Source of the DNA: Rhodothermales bacterium
GTDB taxonomy: Bacteria > Bacteroidota > Rhodothermia > Rhodothermales > JAHQVL01
NCBI GenBank assembly: GCA_034439735.1
Contig: JAWXAX010000167.1
Coordinates: 1 to 62,732, forward strand
DNA: 62,732 nucleotides
Direction: 5' to 3'
Part shown: piece after piece, positions 11 to 58,975 of the stretch
Position numbering within the stretch: the first letter of the stretch is position 1
Layout: each line of letters begins with the position of its first letter
Position numbers and translations under genes: made by a program
Notes under the pieces: generated by a model
Told to the model about the DNA's origin: nothing
The model's input: only the letters and a program-made list of their open reading frames with translations
Databases searched by the model: none

Positions 11-53
11 ACTCCCATACCCCCATACTCCCATACTCAAAAAACTCCCATCC
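11..53. repeat. Degenerate ACTCCCAT octamer tandem repeat next to the cytidylyltransferase stop codon
   Basis: actcccat acccccat actcccat actcaaaa aactcccat read directly; a partner arm could lie outside the window. Confidence 0.6.
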
Positions 54-8870: not shown

Positions 8871-9108
8871 GCGTTCCAGGTTCAATGTTCTATGTTCAAG
8901 GGCTTGAGAAACTGTTGAGATTTGCGTTTTGCATAGTGAGCAAGTCATCCCCGCGCAGGCGGGGACCCAGAAAAATGTCAGTCTGAGGGCTGGATCCCCG
9001 CCTGCGCGGGGATGACTATGCCTTGGGTTGTGGAAATCTCAACAGTTTCTGAACCCTATATAAATCCCCTTTCACCCCTTGAACATCGAACCTTAACCCT
9101 TAAACCCT
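8871..9108. mobile_element. Nested non-autonomous element: heptamer arms enclosing a 17-bp terminal inverted repeat, which encloses a REP pair
   Basis: AGAAACTGTTGAGATTT 8907-8923 and its exact reverse complement 9034-9050; GTCATCCCCGCGCAGGCGGGGACCCA 8944-8969 and TGGATCCCCGCCTGCGCGGGGATGAC 8991-9016; outer GTTC(A/T)A heptamers versus TTGAAC heptamers. Confidence 0.7.
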
Positions 9109-15526: not shown

Positions 15527-15597
15527 GGGTTTAAGGTTCGGGGTTTAAGGTTCAAAGACGCTCATTCATAGAACCTTGAACTTTTTAACCTTAAACC
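15527..15597. repeat. Inverted heptamer-repeat array (GGTTTAA/GGTTCAA versus TTGAACC/TTAAACC)
   Basis: Fills the gap between the SnoaL-like gene stop and the PLD start. Confidence 0.7.
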
Positions 15598-21212: not shown

Positions 21213-21935
21213 ATGCTGCTCCGACTCGAAAACAGCTATCAATCCATGACGTCGCACGTCCGCCAGGTGGAGCGGATCGCGAACAACCTCGCCAACGCCA
21301 GCACGGTCGGCTTCCGGAAGGACCGCTCATTCGTCGAGGTGCTGGCCGAGGGGCTCGACAAAGAAGAGTCACCCTACAGCACGCGCCAGCTCGGGCACTG
21401 GGTGGACCAGCAGCAGGGCAGCCTCGAGCAGACCGGCGGTTCGCTGGATGTGGCCCTGAACGGCGAAGGGTTCTTCGTTCTCTCCGACCCCGATACCGGG
21501 GCCACACGCTATACCCGCGCCGGCCATTTCCTCACGGATGAGGAGGGCACACTCCGCGCGCCGAACGGCCTCGTCGTCGAGGGCCAGGCCGGCCCGATCA
21601 CCATCCCCGAGGACGCGGTGACCGTCGAGATCCGCCGCAACGGCGACGTGATCGTGGACGACAGCCTGGTAGGGACCCTGCGCGTCGTCCGCTTCGACGC
21701 GCCGGAACAGCTGACCCGCATCGACGCGGCCTCGTTCCTCGCGAACGGTGTCGAACCGCAGGACATCGACGAGCCGGCCGTCATCCAGGGCCAGCTCGAA
21801 AACAGCAACGTAGACGCCGTCCGCGAGATGAGCGAACTCATCGCCTACAGCCGTCTCTTCGAAGCCCAACAAAAAACCCTGACCACCGTCGACGGCTACC
21901 TCGAACGCGCCACGCGCGAATTGAGCCGGTTCTGA
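21213..21935 (+). CDS. flgF: Flagellar basal-body rod protein FlgF
   Basis: IANNLANASTVGFRK, LDVALNGEGFF, YTRAGHF, LENSNVDAVREM. Confidence 0.88.
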   Translation: MLLRLENSYQSMTSHVRQVERIANNLANASTVGFRKDRSFVEVLAEGLDKEESPYSTRQLGHWVDQQQGSLEQTGGSLDVALNGEGFFVLSDPDTGATRYTRAGHFLTDEEGTLRAPNGLVVEGQAGPITIPEDAVTVEIRRNGDVIVDDSLVGTLRVVRFDAPEQLTRIDAASFLANGVEPQDIDEPAVIQGQLENSNVDAVREMSELIAYSRLFEAQQKTLTTVDGYLERATRELSRF

Positions 21936-22048
21936 TTGGTTACAGGTTTACAGGTTGCAGGTTACAGGTTCTCAAACTTGCTGCCTTCAACCTGTAAACC
22001 TGCAACCTGCAAACCTGCAAACCTGCAACTTTCCAACCTGCAACCAAC
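21936..22048. repeat. Inverted 7/8-mer repeat array (GGTT(A/G)CA versus AACCTGC/AAACCTGC)
   Basis: Occupies the whole flgF-flgG gap; the arms are reverse complements. Confidence 0.8.
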
Positions 22049-22834
22049 ATGTTAAGAGCACTCTGGACCGCCGCGCTGGGCATGCAAGCCCAGCAACAGG
22101 GCGTTGACAACATCGCCAATAACCTCGCCAACGCGAACACGACGGGGTACAAACACTCCAAGATCGTATTTCAGGACCTGCTGTATCAGACGGTCCGCGC
22201 CCCGAGTGAGGGAGACTCGGGGACGACGCAGCCGGCGACGTTGCAGATGGGCCATGGCGCCACGGCTATCGCCACCGTCCGCAATTTCCAACAGGGCGGC
22301 CTGACCGAGACGCAGAATCCGCTCGATATCGCCATCAACGGCGAGGGCTTCCTCCAGGTCACCCGGCAGGACGGCACGGTGGCCTACACCCGCGACGGCA
22401 CATTCACGCTGAACGCCGAGGGCACCATCGTCACCCAGAGCGGTCTCCGCCTGGAGCCCGAAATCTCGATCCCGCCAGATGCCAGCCGGGTGGATATTTC
22501 GCAGGATGGGGTGGTGATGGCCACGATCCCGGGGGATGTTACTCCCGTAGAACTCGGTCAGATCGAGCTCGCTCGTTTCAACAACGACAGCGGCTTGCTG
22601 GCCATCGGCGGCAACCTCTATGAGCAGACCAACGCCAGCGGCGAGCCCATCATCGGGACGCCTGGCCAGGAGGGTCTGGGTGGGTTGATCCAGGGCTATC
22701 TGGAGAACTCGAACGTGCAGGTGGTCCAGGAAATGGTCAACCTCATCACGGCCCAGCGCGCCTACGAATTGAACACGAAGGTGGTTACCACGGCCGACCA
22801 GATGCTGCAGCAGGCCAACCAGATTAAGCGGTAA
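22049..22834 (+). CDS. flgG: Flagellar distal rod protein FlgG
   Basis: MLRALWTAALGMQAQQ, FQDLLYQ, LENSNVQVVQEMVNLITAQRAYELN. Confidence 0.95.
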   Translation: MLRALWTAALGMQAQQQGVDNIANNLANANTTGYKHSKIVFQDLLYQTVRAPSEGDSGTTQPATLQMGHGATAIATVRNFQQGGLTETQNPLDIAINGEGFLQVTRQDGTVAYTRDGTFTLNAEGTIVTQSGLRLEPEISIPPDASRVDISQDGVVMATIPGDVTPVELGQIELARFNNDSGLLAIGGNLYEQTNASGEPIIGTPGQEGLGGLIQGYLENSNVQVVQEMVNLITAQRAYELNTKVVTTADQMLQQANQIKR

Positions 22835-22844
22835 TTAAGGCAAC

Positions 22845-23645
22845 ATGAAAAAGGCAAAAGGCAAAATCGGGTTTGTACGGGGTCCGCGGTTTATGTGGAA
22901 CTTCCCCCTTCGTGGGGCGCCTTTTGCCCTTTGCCTTTCTTGTTTTTCCTTTTTCCTTTCCTCTTTTGCCTTTTGCCTTCCTTCCCCGGCGCAGCCGGGC
23001 AAGGCGCGGATTCTAGCGGCGGCGCGGGCCGCGCTGGATGCCGCGTATCCCGAGCAGGCCGGCCGGCTTGACGTACGGCTGGTGCGGACAGGGGGCGAAC
23101 TCCCGGACGACGGCCCGCTCCGCCTCGTGCTGCCCCCCGGCAACGCCCTCCCCCGGGGCAGGCTTCAGGCCGACCTCGAACGACAAGAGGTTGATGGCAT
23201 CTGGCTGGAAAGCGGCTGGGCGCAGATCTATATCGCCCATTTTGACTCGGTCGCCACGCCGATCCGTACAGTCAACAAAGACGAAAAGATCGACTCCGGG
23301 GATGTGGCCTTTGCCTGGATTGAAACCACACGGTTTGCCGGGGAGCCGCTTACGCCGGCCCTCTTCCGCGAACTGGCGGTCGGACCGCTCTTCGCACATC
23401 GGCACCTCGGCGCGGACCGCGCCCTGCAGCGTGACGACGTGCGGCCGGCGTACGCGGCAACCACCGGAGAACCGGTGGAGATGACGTACCGGCGGGAGCG
23501 CCTGCTCCTTTCGATCAAAGGCCAGGCCCGATCGCAGGGCTTTGTCGGCGACAGCATTCGGCTGTATGCGCCGGCGACCAAAACCATGTATAAAGTCCGC
23601 CTCACCGGCCCCGGCGCCGCGGAGTGGATCGAAACCTTGAAGTAA
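22845..23645 (+). CDS. flgA: P-ring formation chaperone FlgA
   Basis: Position between flgG and flgH; SAF-like region and GQARSQGFVGDSIRL C-terminus. Confidence 0.8.
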   Translation: MKKAKGKIGFVRGPRFMWNFPLRGAPFALCLSCFSFFLSSFAFCLPSPAQPGKARILAAARAALDAAYPEQAGRLDVRLVRTGGELPDDGPLRLVLPPGNALPRGRLQADLERQEVDGIWLESGWAQIYIAHFDSVATPIRTVNKDEKIDSGDVAFAWIETTRFAGEPLTPALFRELAVGPLFAHRHLGADRALQRDDVRPAYAATTGEPVEMTYRRERLLLSIKGQARSQGFVGDSIRLYAPATKTMYKVRLTGPGAAEWIETLK

Positions 23646-24263: not shown

Positions 24264-24471
24264 GGACACGACACATCGTGTCCCTACCTGAAGACCGCAC
24301 ATTCCCTTCAGGCCTGTCATCCCCAACTCGATGGGGGGATCCATTCAAGGCGGGATGGTGCCATGGATTACATCGTAAGTCGCTTCGCTCGTTTCCCGCC
24401 TTCGCGGGAGCCTGCCCCCGGCTTTGACCGGGGGATGACGAATAGAGTGTAGTGCAATTCTCAACGGTTCC
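24260..24471. repeat. REP cluster: GTAG palindrome, CGTC-type pair with internal hairpin insertions, and the shared end motif
   Basis: GTAGGGACACGA-CACA-TCGTGTCCCTAC 24260-24287; GTCATCCCCAACTCGATGGGGGGATCCA at 24316; CCCCCGG-CTTTGA-CCGGGGG-ATGACG to 24440; GCAATTCTCAACGGTT at 24454. Confidence 0.65.
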
Positions 24472-24480
24472 TTCGAAAAA

Positions 24481-25617: not shown

Positions 25618-25681
25618 GTCAAGGACTATTACCTATTAAAAATTGAACATTACACAGGTACACATTAAACCGCATCGCCCC

Positions 25682-29073: not shown

Positions 29074-29184
29074 CGGCTCTTCCATGATTGGTTACGCGAA
29101 AGGGTCGTGGCTCCAGGAGCTCGTCATCTTATCACATCCAGGAACCTGACACCTGTAACCCGTAACCTGTAACCCATTACTCAC

Positions 29185-30036
29185 ATGCGCTCCGCCTCCT
29201 CCCTCTCTACCGGCCCATCCTTTTTGTCGGCCTACCGGCTTCCGGTTCTGACGCTTCCCGAGACGACCCGGCTGCCGGATATCGCGCCGGACGTCCTGCC
29301 GGCGGTGATGCACAAGGACGCCGACCCTCGCAATATCTCGCTGCGGATGATTCTCGGGGACAAGCTCCCGTTGCCAGACCAGGATCAAGCCGCTATGCAT
29401 GCCGCTCTCGCCGCGTCGTTCCTACAGGCTGGCGACCTGAAGAAGGCGCGCCGCCACGCCGAGCAGTCGGTTGCGTTTTACCGCAAACAGTGGGCGGGGC
29501 ACCGGGTCCTGGTGGACGTACTCATGGCGCATAAGGGGTTTGTAGAAGCAGCCGCGGTGATCGCCGGCTTCAAGCCGCCCGCGAAACCGGCGGCGTGGGA
29601 CCGGGCGCTGCCGCTCCGAGAGTGGAATTTATGCGCGGCGGCCTGCGCGTGGCGGCTCAAGGCGTGGGACACCGTCGCCGAACGGTTGGCCGAGGCGTTC
29701 CCGGAGGGGCTCGCATCGATGCCGGCCGCCCTCCTGGAGGACTATTTCCGGCTCACACTCTACCGCAACCAGCCCGACGAAGCCGGCCGCGTCGCCGCGA
29801 CGCTCATGACCACCAACACACTCGAATTCAATGACGAATTACTCCAGACCCTGGTGCAGCAGGGGTGGACGCAGCAGGCGCTCCCCCTCTACCGCTCCGC
29901 CTTCACCAAGGACCCCCGGAACCAGTTGCTCCGCCGGCGCCTTGTGGCGCTGTGTATTCGCGAAGGCAACATCGAGGAAGCGCGCCGGCTGACGGCGCCT
30001 GGCGCCCTGGATATGAACGCCCGCGCGAGCTCCTGA
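29185..30036 (+). CDS. TPR-like hypothetical protein
   Basis: All-helical 283 aa ORF with DPRNQLLRRRLVALCIREGNIEEARR. Confidence 0.65.
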   Translation: MRSASSLSTGPSFLSAYRLPVLTLPETTRLPDIAPDVLPAVMHKDADPRNISLRMILGDKLPLPDQDQAAMHAALAASFLQAGDLKKARRHAEQSVAFYRKQWAGHRVLVDVLMAHKGFVEAAAVIAGFKPPAKPAAWDRALPLREWNLCAAACAWRLKAWDTVAERLAEAFPEGLASMPAALLEDYFRLTLYRNQPDEAGRVAATLMTTNTLEFNDELLQTLVQQGWTQQALPLYRSAFTKDPRNQLLRRRLVALCIREGNIEEARRLTAPGALDMNARASS

Positions 30037-31104: not shown

Positions 31105-31315
31105 GCGGATGAAACGAGGAAGGCGGCCTTCGGGCCGCCAACCTGAAATCACCCCCGAGGACCCGTTCCCGCCGCCGATCCCTCTCTCGCAAACGGAGGC
31201 CGGCACGCGGGGACACAAGGACCCAATAACAAAGTGAGTCCGGGGCGGTGCTCGCACCACCACCCCGAACCCCACTCACTCCTAGCCAATAACCAACACA
31301 AACGGAGGAAGGAAC

Positions 31316-32143: not shown

Positions 32144-32215
32144 GGGTTTAAACCCAGAAACGGGACGGTTCTGGCAAGCATGCTCCCGTGGGTCGGCAGA
32201 CCCACCGGTCTGCCG

Positions 32216-32256
32216 AGAACACCCCTCCGAGAAATCGGGGGGGTGTTCTTTATTTT
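32216..32256. terminator. Hairpin terminator between convergent flagellin 2 and the GT2 gene
   Basis: AGAACACCCCTCCGA-GAAA-TCGGGGGGGTGTTCT followed by TTATTTT. Confidence 0.7.
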
Positions 32257-32271
32257 CAGGGGGACGCCTCA

Positions 32272-36911: not shown

Positions 36912-37286
36912 ATGAACATCGGGAACATCAACAAAGGAGGCCTCTCCCAGTCTAATCCGCTCAATCATCGGAAGATCGAGAAGACGGACCATGAAGGGCG
37001 CCAGCCCGCCCGGCCAGGCAACGATAAGGACGAAGCCCCGCACCGCGACAGCGTAGCCATTTCCGAAGCCGGCCGCCGGGCCCTCGAGGAGGAGCAGCGC
37101 AAGATGCAGGACCTGGACATGGCACGCCGCGTCTATGACGCCGAGGGCGCGTTGTCCGACGAGCGCCGGCAGGAAATCATGGCGCGGATCCAGTCGCAGT
37201 ATTACAAAAACCCGGCGGTTATCGATCAGATCGTTGCGCGCCTCGGGGATGACCTCGGCGCCCCTTCCGACGGCTCGCTGGCGTAG
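36912..37286 (+). CDS. flgM: Anti-sigma28 factor FlgM
   Basis: DSVAISEAGR and ERRQEIMARIQSQYY. Confidence 0.8.
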   Translation: MNIGNINKGGLSQSNPLNHRKIEKTDHEGRQPARPGNDKDEAPHRDSVAISEAGRRALEEEQRKMQDLDMARRVYDAEGALSDERRQEIMARIQSQYYKNPAVIDQIVARLGDDLGAPSDGSLA

Positions 37287-37350
37287 GGTTTCGAGTTCCG
37301 GGTTCGAGGTTACATGCCATTGAACCTCACACCCGCAACATTGTACCCTT

Positions 37351-41857: not shown

Positions 41858-41923
41858 GTTTAAAGGGTAAGGTTCAAGGTTTAATGTGATGAAGACATGC
41901 CTTGAGCCTTGAACATTGAACAT
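41858..41923. repeat. Inverted heptamer-repeat array
   Basis: ggtttaa agggtaa ggttcaa ggtttaa ... ccttgag ccttgaa cattgaa cat, between fliE and fliF. Confidence 0.7.
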
Positions 41924-41945
41924 CGATGGTGAACGACAGCAGTAG

Positions 41946-44776: not shown

Positions 44777-44837
44777 CAGGGGGCTTCAAGGTCAACATTT
44801 TATACATTAGACCTTGACCCCAGAACCTTAAACCCCA

Positions 44838-47063: not shown

Positions 47064-47169
47064 TACCAGTGAGGCCACGAGATTTCATGTCCCTACTCTG
47101 CGCTTCGCCTGTAGCGTCAATTTTTCCTGCCCCCTCGCCAATCACGATTCGCATTACTCGCTAATCAAT

Positions 47170-50560: not shown

Positions 50561-50670
50561 GTTTAAGGTTTAAGGTTTAAGGTTTAAGGTTTAAACGTAT
50601 AACACCAACTCACACGTTGCACGTTTCACTTTTCACTTTGCCTTTTGCCTTTTCCCTTTTGCACTTCTTC
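50561..50670. repeat. Heptamer arrays: GTTTAAG x4 plus a partial unit, then CTTTT(G/C)(C/A) units
   Basis: Read directly in the flgD-flgE gap. Confidence 0.75.
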
Positions 50671-57221: not shown

Positions 57222-57995
57222 CTGATTCGCCTTCTGATCGTCGATGACTCTTCGTTCATGCGAACGACCCTCAGCCAGTTGCTCGACGCCGAGCCGGACA
57301 TCACCGTGGTGGGTACCGCAAGGGACGGCGTGGAGGCGCTGGAACAGGCGCGTGTGCTCAAACCGGATGCATCACCATGGATGTGAGGATGCCGAACATG
57401 GACGGCATCTCGGCGGTCCAGCAGATCATGAGCGCGCACCCGTGTCCGATCCTCATGTTCAGCTCGCTGATGCAGGAAGGCGCCGAGACCACGCTGAAAG
57501 CCCTCAACGCCGGCGCGATCGGCTTCATCACCAAAGAGCGCTCGTTTGTGCGTGCGAGCGGGGCGATATCGTCCGGACCTGGTCACCAAGATCAAGTCCA
57601 TCCACAGCGCCCGCTCCGGCATCTTTCACAGCGCCCGCCCGGCGGGGGCCACGGCGACGGCACCCCCGGGCGTCCCGTTTTCAGGGGCCGACCTCGTCGT
57701 ACTCGGCATCTCCACAGGTGGCCCGCTTTCCCTACAGAAGGTGATTCCGCTGCTGCCAGCGCATTTCCCCTTGCCCATCATCATCGTGCAGCACATGCCG
57801 CCCAAGTTCACCAAGACCCTGGCCGACAGCCTGAATGCGCAAAGCGCGATCAGCGTCGTCGAGGGCGTCGACGGCATGGCGCTGCGGCCCGGGACCGTGT
57901 GCATCGCCCCGGGAGGCAACGACAGCATCGTGGTTCGCAGCGGCGGGCAGATGCAGCTTCAGGTACTGAAGCCCATGAGCGCCTCGCGACGTTAA
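57222..57995 (+). pseudogene. cheB: cheB remnant: non-ATG start, two frameshifts, 3' truncation
   Basis: [13 protein letters not shown]...[11 protein letters not shown]...GFITK and GISTGGP...IVQHMP...IAPGG lie in different frames; RPSVD and GxDG region absent. Confidence 0.85.
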
Positions 57996-58018
57996 CATTC
58001 TCTTTTCGACGCCGATAC
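57992..58018 (+). promoter_or_regulatory. Sigma28-type promoter of motAB
   Basis: TTAA-N15-GCCGATAC. Confidence 0.65.
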
Positions 58019-58126
58019 CCCGAACAGCCCGGCCAGCGGTCCCAACCGGGAGGAACGCAGTGCTGAAGGCGTCAGGATCGAACCCGTACTGTCTGGTCAC
58101 GATGGCATTCTCACGAACGTAGCACC

Positions 58127-58915: not shown

Positions 58916-58975
58916 TGGTCGATGGTCGATGGTTCCATCACCAATCGCTACTCGCTAATCGCTACTCGCTAATCC
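58916..58975. repeat. Heptamer arrays (TGGTCGA; TCGCTA(A/C)) in the motA-motB gap
   Basis: tggtcga tggtcga tggtt ccatc acc aa tcgctac tcgctaa tcgctac tcgctaa. Confidence 0.7.

Follow-up and report, generated by a model that had tools for sequence, protein, structure and literature searches.

Inverted arrays of 7-8-bp words, found at gene junctions throughout a Rhodothermales genome, appear to be copied between loci as DNA, with a four-helix-bundle gene that carries the same arms as the likely master and competence as the likely route; this is a tentative reading, to which we give somewhat less than even credence. Since an excess of 7-bp repeats was first noticed in bacterial genomes, it has been without a mechanism, and the very large PF05635/TIGR02436 family, to which the four-helix-bundle proteins belong, has yielded structures but no function so far. 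A predicted promoter in common with DNA-uptake genes and repeated placement behind radC point to a condition (competence), a candidate ligand (the cognate words on single-stranded DNA) and partner proteins, and these long-unexplained repeats likely spread during natural transformation, by a mechanism that we infer. The heptamer repeat class and its polarity are already in print (accessible portions of PMC4692102 and PMC4679880), and what is new here is the junction-level turnover, the negative tests of scars and of RNA strand, the passenger sequence, the competence promoter and the adjacency to radC; the sequence-only reading that this analysis followed up did not see the competence link.

The window, meaning the whole 62,732-nt stretch analysed (contig C167), belongs to genome G000 (5.14 Mb in 304 contigs; assembly 98% complete) and carries a flagellar gene cluster. 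Gene boundaries were taken from our own dicodon caller, which gave 4023 genes in G000. Word families are named by example, A1 being the unit of 21938-21970, A2 that of 50561-50594, B that of 22849-22866, C the complement of 58945-58974 and D that of 58916-58933 (Table 1). The earlier description of 21936-22048 as two arms filling the gap between the flgF stop and the flgG start was borne out, and the predicted RNA fold of this interval has a z of -6.0, with none of 200 shuffles equally stable. At 17.5 arms per 100 kb, the window ranks second in array density among the 43 contigs longer than 30 kb (median 7.3), and a search of the window against Rfam gave no match at the gathering score.

Table 1. 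Arrays and neighbouring features in the window, in order of position.
Position	Strand	Feature	Remarks
11..38	+	Single period-8 arm	At contig end, after stop of minus-strand gene
8871..8900	+	Left arm, family A2	Past stop of TylF/glycosyltransferase gene
8906..9051	.	Nested loop insert	REP-type doublet (8944-9016) in its own inverted wrapper; separate repeat family
9052..9108	+	Right arm, A2 complement	Before glycosyltransferase start
15527..15597	.	Inverted pair, family A2	Composite of period 14; both neighboring genes on the minus strand
21213..21935	+	flgF	Upstream gene of focal junction; from gene calls
21938..21970	+	Left G-rich arm, family A1	Period 7, about 4.6 copies; 3 nt past flgF stop
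21971..21983	.	Short loop	Between focal arms
21984..22045	+	Right C-rich arm, A1 complement	Mixed 7/8-nt words; ends 3 nt before flgG ATG
22049..22834	+	flgG	
22849..22866	+	Left arm, family B	Within flgA ORF; Lys-rich first residues if the ATG at 22845 is used
22919..22979	+	Right arm, family B complement	Translated in frame, makes up the hydrophobic core of the FlgA signal peptide (predicted)
25620..25670	+	Decayed right arm	Follows flgI
29144..29174	+	Single right arm, family A1	Precedes gene at 29185
37286..37339	.	Degenerate inverted pair	Flanked by convergent genes; array in G001, none in G002
41858..41926	.	Inverted pair, family A2	fliE-fliF; longer same-family version in G001
44784..44835	.	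Degenerate inverted pair	After fliG
50561..50666	.	Mismatched pair	flgD-flgE; left A2 (50561-50594, perfect), right B (50613-50666)
58916..58974	.	Mismatched pair	motA-motB; left D (58916-58933), right C (58937-58974)

Thirteen sites in the window had been listed as arrays, seven of them as clear and six as one-armed or mismatched, and each was compared with 300 dinucleotide shuffles for inverted complementarity and for period-7/8 repetition. Both labels held, as complementarity was significant at all seven clear sites (p 0.003-0.027) and at none of the other six. Period-7/8 repetition was significant at nine of the thirteen; the arrays at 15527, 37286 and 44784 are inverted and too degenerate to score as exact repeats of that period. 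Twelve of the listed sites pass on periodicity or complementarity, and 47140-47168 passes on neither. Two of the clear cases require amendment: that at 8871-9108 is an inverted pair, but a nested doublet (8944-9016), which we take to be of REP type, sits between its arms, and that at 22848-22980 is a real array but lies inside the 5' end of flgA (22845-23645), not between genes, where it encodes a signal-peptide-like N-terminus. Such recruitment of right arms as signal peptides, FlgA being one example, is a clear host use of the arms. Hydrophobic N-termini are likewise encoded by in-frame right arms on contigs C143, C178, C232, C295 and C299, and the predicted FlgA signal peptide is arm-derived in G000 and in its relatives G001 and G002, from different words in each.

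The mismatched flgD-flgE pair is identical in kind in G001, and at the junction after flgI (25620-25670) G001 has a pair of family D that encloses a REP-type insert, and G002 has a family-A2 pair. The REP-type doublets of the window lie at 8906-9051 and at about 24264-24480; the wrapper motif of the former and a related motif have 38 copies in the genome, often nested in heptamer pairs. On contig C284 (2417-3835), IS-like ORF fragments stand between matched family-B arms, the loop again being used for insertion.

Across G000, 5-mer identity at a lag of 7 occurs at 8.6 per kb of intergenic DNA, where shuffles give 1.3; lags of 8, 14, 15 and 21 show echoes, and the sharp lag-7 signal is confined to intergenic DNA. 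Arms scoring at least 11 number 444 in intergenic and 54 in coding DNA, in support of a non-random placement relative to gene boundaries; within one set of 110 contigs, lags 7/8 give 161 intergenic arms and lags 10/11 give 7. Complementarity between arms likewise exceeds controls, since 116 of the 147 G-then-C pairs no more than 300 nt apart are complementary, compared with 24% under permutation, and the other 31 are not. No complementary pair has the reverse, C-rich-first order, against the 116 that begin with the G-rich arm. G-rich arms start within -30 to +8 nt of a stop in 207 of 243 cases, and in plus-strand co-directional gaps 97% of 61 start no more than 20 nt from the stop; C-rich arms run up to the next start, 66% of 79 ending no more than 20 nt from it, or to a convergent stop. 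Among gaps of 40-150 nt, divergent ones are depleted of arrays (3/92), compared with convergent (40/176) and co-directional (89/961) ones. Stop codons at array junctions show no excess of change (26/58 against 124/336, p = 0.31), which led us to reject overwriting by the arrays and counts against the main model.

Loops have a median length of 23 nt, and 49 of 60 match nothing elsewhere, most of the other 11 being nested repeats, so that whole pairs are not copied as fixed units. The vocabulary is closed: in each family the top eight words account for 81-84% of the words, each word recurs at many sites, and G000 holds at least six word families that are not of G4 type. It had been noted that the unit differs by site and the period is kept, and this extends to the whole genome, where several word families share period 7/8 and the G-then-C layout.

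The sequence-only reading had offered RNA processing stems that tune subunit stoichiometry as one function for the pairs. In a fuller form of this explanation, the pairs would be RNA stems under selection that adjust cistron levels in operons, acting either as RNase III sites or as protectors of 3' ends, with the four-helix-bundle protein as their RNA-binding partner. The stable predicted hairpins (z = -6), the starts at stop codons, the depletion of divergent gaps, the position kept between congeners, the density of arrays in the flagellar-operon window and the history of the protein family, first known from rRNA intervening sequences (whence its Pfam name), are all in keeping with it. The mRNA strand, however, shows no G-U bias (45 against 49), the sense strand is the more stable in only 24 of 68 pairs, and mismatches that are symmetric between strands fit a DNA-level process. 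A fifth of close pairs (31 of 147) cannot pair, and mismatched pairs persist across genomes at flgD-flgE and motA-motB. Few or no such arms are found at the same flagellar junctions in most other genera, and in the cassettes (armed four-helix-bundle genes) of family f1 the left arm contains the predicted promoter, so that the cassette transcript would lack the stem. Selected RNA stems are therefore quite unlikely, though an incidental RNA effect may occur at single sites.

Among 403 junctions orthologous with G001, arrays are present in both genomes at 51, in G000 only at 15, in G001 only at 25 and in neither at 312, a sharing far above chance; this comparison covers 0.82 of 5.7 Mb, and many contigs were picked for matches to A1, B or C patterns, a choice that inflates the G001 array counts but not A2. 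The arm family has switched in 17 of 68 comparable arms, and among pairs whose two arms could be called in G000 and G001 alike, 12 are unchanged, 5 have changed in both arms and none in one. The comparison with G002 (170 junctions, 0.44 of 6.3 Mb) gave 12 arrays in common, and 13 and 10 private ones. At least seven sites have A1 in G000 opposite A2 in G001, with no reverse case among the rows listed, and the A2-to-A1 direction in G000 rests on these rows, on flgF-flgG, on the flagellar cluster and on motif density. The A1/A2 motifs number 82/32 per Mb in G000, 35/80 in G001 and 31/72 in G002, which amounts to a lineage dialect.

At flgF-flgG, the two congeners (G001 and G002) have A2 in both arms against A1 in G000, and in most of the other 23 genomes the spacer is plain. 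A one-arm change is seen at motA-motB, where the right arm is kept in three genomes and the left arm is different in each. Congeners differ freely in array length, only G001 has a pair at the junction after 62158, and presence/absence junctions inspected by eye point to replacement, with no clear target-site duplication in genomes only 79-85% identical. In G002 the whole flgF-flgG junction block of ~130 bp (L006), arms included, is tandemly duplicated.

A 50-bp non-repetitive passenger was found in 17 A1-type arms on 14 contigs, in one orientation (18 BLAST matches, one spurious removed), and the same query did not find it in the G001 and G002 subsets. A kept position with a replaced unit, usually in both arms, and a passenger common to 17 unlinked arms favor copying between loci over local slippage, in support of the earlier remark that simple slippage does not readily explain the arrays. 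The passenger could instead be an independent small element targeting A1 arms, a point counted against the main model.

Arms might also arise without any dedicated protein, if slippage lengthened them, template switching harmonized the two arms and ordinary ectopic gene conversion, aided by the uptake of kin DNA in transformation, spread the commonest word; the cassette would then be one passenger at recombination-prone sites that took the competence promoter for its own sake. This account, which we regard as unlikely, draws on the free variation of array lengths, on the usual joint change of both arms, on loops that take other inserts such as REP-type doublets, and on two results given below, namely the weak genome-level correlation with the gene (p = 0.095) and the lack of a cassette for family A1. 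It does not account for a period that stays at 7-8, for the absolute order of G-rich before C-rich arms (116 against 0), for the correspondence between unit families and protein clades across genomes or for the keeping of arms at 64 of 78 four-helix-bundle genes.

Those genes figured in the sequence-only reading as genes flanked by similar arms in surface-structure operons and absent from this stretch, a link said to need checking. None was indeed found in the window, and the link is upheld in the genome, where the TIGR02436 profile matches two full-length genes (and one further gene weakly) that both carry arms of the same families: the gene on C176 has family-B arms on both sides, and that on C138 has a family-C left arm and ends at the edge of its contig. 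A custom profile detected only these two genes and one suffix-type gene in G000, with no further cassettes and no gene remnants in loops, and in this assembly (304 contigs, 98% complete) it found no A1-armed cassette, though A1 is the most abundant family; G001 and G002 each hold an A2-armed cassette. One solved relative was found, 2RLD, in five chains (E 8e-11).

The four-helix-bundle family is present in 31 of 41 genomes. Among 78 of its genes, taken as a part of all matches, a repeated heptamer unit occurs at 64, and on both sides at 54 by a loose count. Heptamer units group with protein clades on a tree that has few columns and many open forks and includes orthologous loci, and units within two differences of each other make up 38% of cross-genome pairs at a protein identity of at least 50%, against 11% at less than 30%; such tracking is expected from block inheritance alone, which weighs against the main model. 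Genomes with the gene have 15 arms in 413 kb and those without it 6 in 448 kb (per-genome p = 0.095); several gene-bearing genomes have no arms in the 20-30 kb sampled, and the genus of G000 is an extreme. Outside family f1, cassettes are mostly promoterless, co-directional and inside operons. A longer four-helix-bundle variant on contig C15 (6146-6277, L003) has no arms in 250 nt and a near-identical copy in G001; a gene related to it is found in G002, with the promoter motif described below, and the orthologous G000 site is without it.

The same cassettes bear on the proposal that empty pairs are the scars of cassettes that lost their gene, or future landing pads. In its favor, four relatives are filled at argS-pheA where G000 and G001 have an empty pair, and the pair at secA-recN encloses a promoter motif. 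When the junctions filled in a relative were restricted to the 24 whose two neighbors map to adjacent G000 genes, however, an empty pair stood at only one of them, which is not above the background of 10% (268/2619). Filled alleles were found neither at flgF-flgG in 26 loci nor at any window junction in two congeners, the sites that are filled in two congeners are clean in G000, the loops hold no gene remnants by the custom profile, and hundreds of pairs face two or three genes. The scar reading is largely refuted, and we consider scars or landing pads very unlikely.

Synthesis at broken ends was also considered, in which a telomerase-like or retron-like polymerase would add G-rich words to both 3' ends of a break before these were joined. 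Such a process would give the strict G-then-C order (116 against 0) together with the 31 mismatched pairs, the unique loops and the closed vocabulary, and the four-helix-bundle fold is related to Avd, the accessory protein of diversity-generating retroelements. It is nevertheless highly improbable, as PF00078 reverse transcriptase has no match in G000 (assembly 98% complete), no template RNA was identified and Rfam has no match in the window, and a 50-bp passenger would be hard to make by word addition.

Copying linked to competence, which is the reading we prefer, draws on a bipartite motif, AGGKTAY-N16/17-YGTCT, that lies between the left arm and the ORF in cassette flanks. A matrix scan of G000 gave 40 matches, 37 of them intergenic. 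The 20 annotated downstream genes include recA, comEC, radC, dprA, comEA, ssb, and recJ, along with a UvrD-like helicase, DUF2851, RAYT-like, two Uma2, GIY-YIG, and winged-helix genes, a weak peptidase match and five genes without family; recN and comM also lie downstream of motif matches, and more GIY-YIG-like ORFs behind the motif were recognized by eye only. The motif is conserved upstream of radC across the order (27 of 30). A matrix retrained on radC upstreams, with seed words informed by the motif already seen and a radC set that includes f1 genomes, scored at least 11 upstream of 14 of 19 family-f1 four-helix-bundle genes and of 6 of 58 outside f1, with no antisense or downstream match and 1 in 166 controls, and it found 8 of 29 dprA upstreams. 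The own-promoter link is mostly confined to this one family, which is counted against the main model. A predicted competence promoter for this order has been obtained. Judged by the common upstream motif, the four-helix-bundle gene is a candidate member of the competence regulon, its co-induction being a prediction, and several repeat-associated gene families (RAYT-like, GIY-YIG, and Uma2) would fall into the same putative regulon. The view that the motif is an outward promoter borne by the cassette was rejected, as the motif occurs genome-wide with only 3 of 39 matches near arms, and scores on the sense strand only.

At the secA-recN junction of G000 (C254, L090), a family-B pair encloses the motif and ~150 nt of non-coding DNA; this layout recurs in G001, and G002 has an A2 pair after a weaker motif. 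The motif also abuts REP-type hairpins on C20, C118, and C184. A1 words resemble its upstream box, such that some arrays score as promoters, and at L030 the upstream box is embedded in an arm.

A four-helix-bundle gene directly follows radC in 4 of the 38 radC-bearing genomes of the order (G030, G024, G040, and G027), and these genes fall in three separate clades. The same adjacency in G094, from another order, brings the number to five genomes in all, the phylum-level cases being taken from coordinates among 150 of 273 four-helix-bundle matches listed. With ~5 genes among ~3500 per genome, we would expect well under one such case by chance. No cassette adjoins dprA in 30 loci. Mobile elements insert into or regulate competence genes, according to the accessible part of a published account (PMC12378983), so the adjacency to radC could reflect exploitation as well as function.

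In the mechanism that we propose, the motif would be an alternative-sigma promoter from which the four-helix-bundle gene is turned on along with comEA, comEC, comM, dprA, radC, recA, and ssb. The protein, possibly a pentamer by its likeness to 2RLD, would bind its cognate words on single-stranded DNA, and arm-bearing DNA of this kind, whether incoming or displaced, would enter intergenic DNA by pasting or gene conversion. The search for a reverse transcriptase was negative and the protein is not known to be catalytic, so this step would fall to host recombination proteins or to co-regulated nucleases (RAYT-like, GIY-YIG, and Uma2). Selection would leave arms where coding sequence and promoters are spared, and now and then a right arm would be recruited as a signal peptide. 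The relation between arms and gene would resemble that of REP to RAYT without the transposase, with hundreds of empty copies per two or three master genes. A more specific version, in which these proteins supply the trans-acting factor that bacterial heptamer repeats have lacked, the protein is a competence-induced, word-specific ssDNA-binding pentamer and transformation writes and rewrites the arms with one word family per clade, is doubtful. If true, it would define a class of selfish repeat that has no transposase and relies on the host machinery of DNA uptake, and the promoter would unite the gene of the arms with RAYT-, GIY-YIG-, and Uma2-type genes in one competence-timed guild.

Known systems share some of these traits. 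In REP/REPIN-RAYT systems, hundreds of intergenic inverted repeats near stops accompany a few master genes flanked by their own family; the families are lineage-specific and nest, the unit is one palindrome of 20-40 bp and the gene is an HUH transposase. G000 similarly has many intergenic copies per master gene (444 arms, two full-length genes), but its arms are tandem 7/8-nt words rather than a single palindrome with a conserved foot, and the flanked genes encode TIGR02436/PF05635 four-helix bundles rather than an HUH (Y1) transposase; a separate RAYT-like gene lies under the same motif (NF047646, below cut-off). Unlike MITEs, the copies have no conserved internal sequence (49 of 60 loops without match), and unlike diversity-generating retroelements with Avd, they have no reverse transcriptase partner in G000. 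The two cassette genes belong to the protein family of 23S rRNA intervening sequences (PF05635/TIGR02436), but their neighbors are protein genes, not 23S rRNA, and the competence-type motif precedes genes of family f1; the arrangement of a PF05635 ORF between arms is absent from the window, complete on C176 and limited to the left arm on C138, at the contig end. DNA uptake sequences consist of one word spread through coding DNA, unlike the several word families and the 444 intergenic against 54 coding arms described here. Cyanobacterial STRR form a heptamer-run class akin to the Beggiatoaceae repeats.

Closest in form are the intergenic heptamers of Xanthomonas and Nostoc, whose G-rich strand is the sense strand no more than 50 bp after stops and the antisense strand before starts, which are rare between divergent genes and form 70-75 convergent inverted pairs per genome; long arrays occur at different genes in two species, and no role was found for the repeats (PMC4692102, accessible text). 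The G000 arrays belong to this heptamer class in their intergenic period-7 runs, polarity, rarity in divergent gaps and convergent inverted pairs, and differ in having at least six non-G4 word families against one G-quadruplex-forming word (PMC4692102, same portion); the accessible text of that report mentions neither four-helix-bundle genes nor DNA uptake. The accessible part of PMC4679880 describes direct repeats of a single heptamer in Beggiatoaceae, Cyanobacteria, and Bacteroidetes, and proposes that they act in translation. Like these, G000 has heptamer runs that end just before starts, with a sporadic phylogenetic spread and no evident mechanism, but in G000 the inverted arms are paired, units are replaced at orthologous sites and there is a candidate cognate gene. 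The gamma-proteobacterial CRP-S/Sxy competence regulon comprises com genes, rec2/comEC, dprA, radC, comM, and ssb (PMC1635313, accessible portion); the motif-led gene set of G000 is that of known competence regulons, with a bipartite sigma-type motif against CRP-S (PMC1635313). In the literature searched, the scope of which left most subscription papers and supplements outside, neither a competence link for heptamer arrays or four-helix-bundle genes nor TIGR02436 by name was found.

Two further observations concern the flagellar window. The cheB-like gene (57244-58066) has a frameshift near 57370 relative to the continuous frame in G001 and G002, which is either real or an assembly error. Two non-coding stretches, one following the two flagellin genes (32144-32271) and one separating them (31105-31315), seem, by eye, to be conserved in three genomes above the coding average; they contain hairpins without an Rfam match and are candidate regulatory RNAs.
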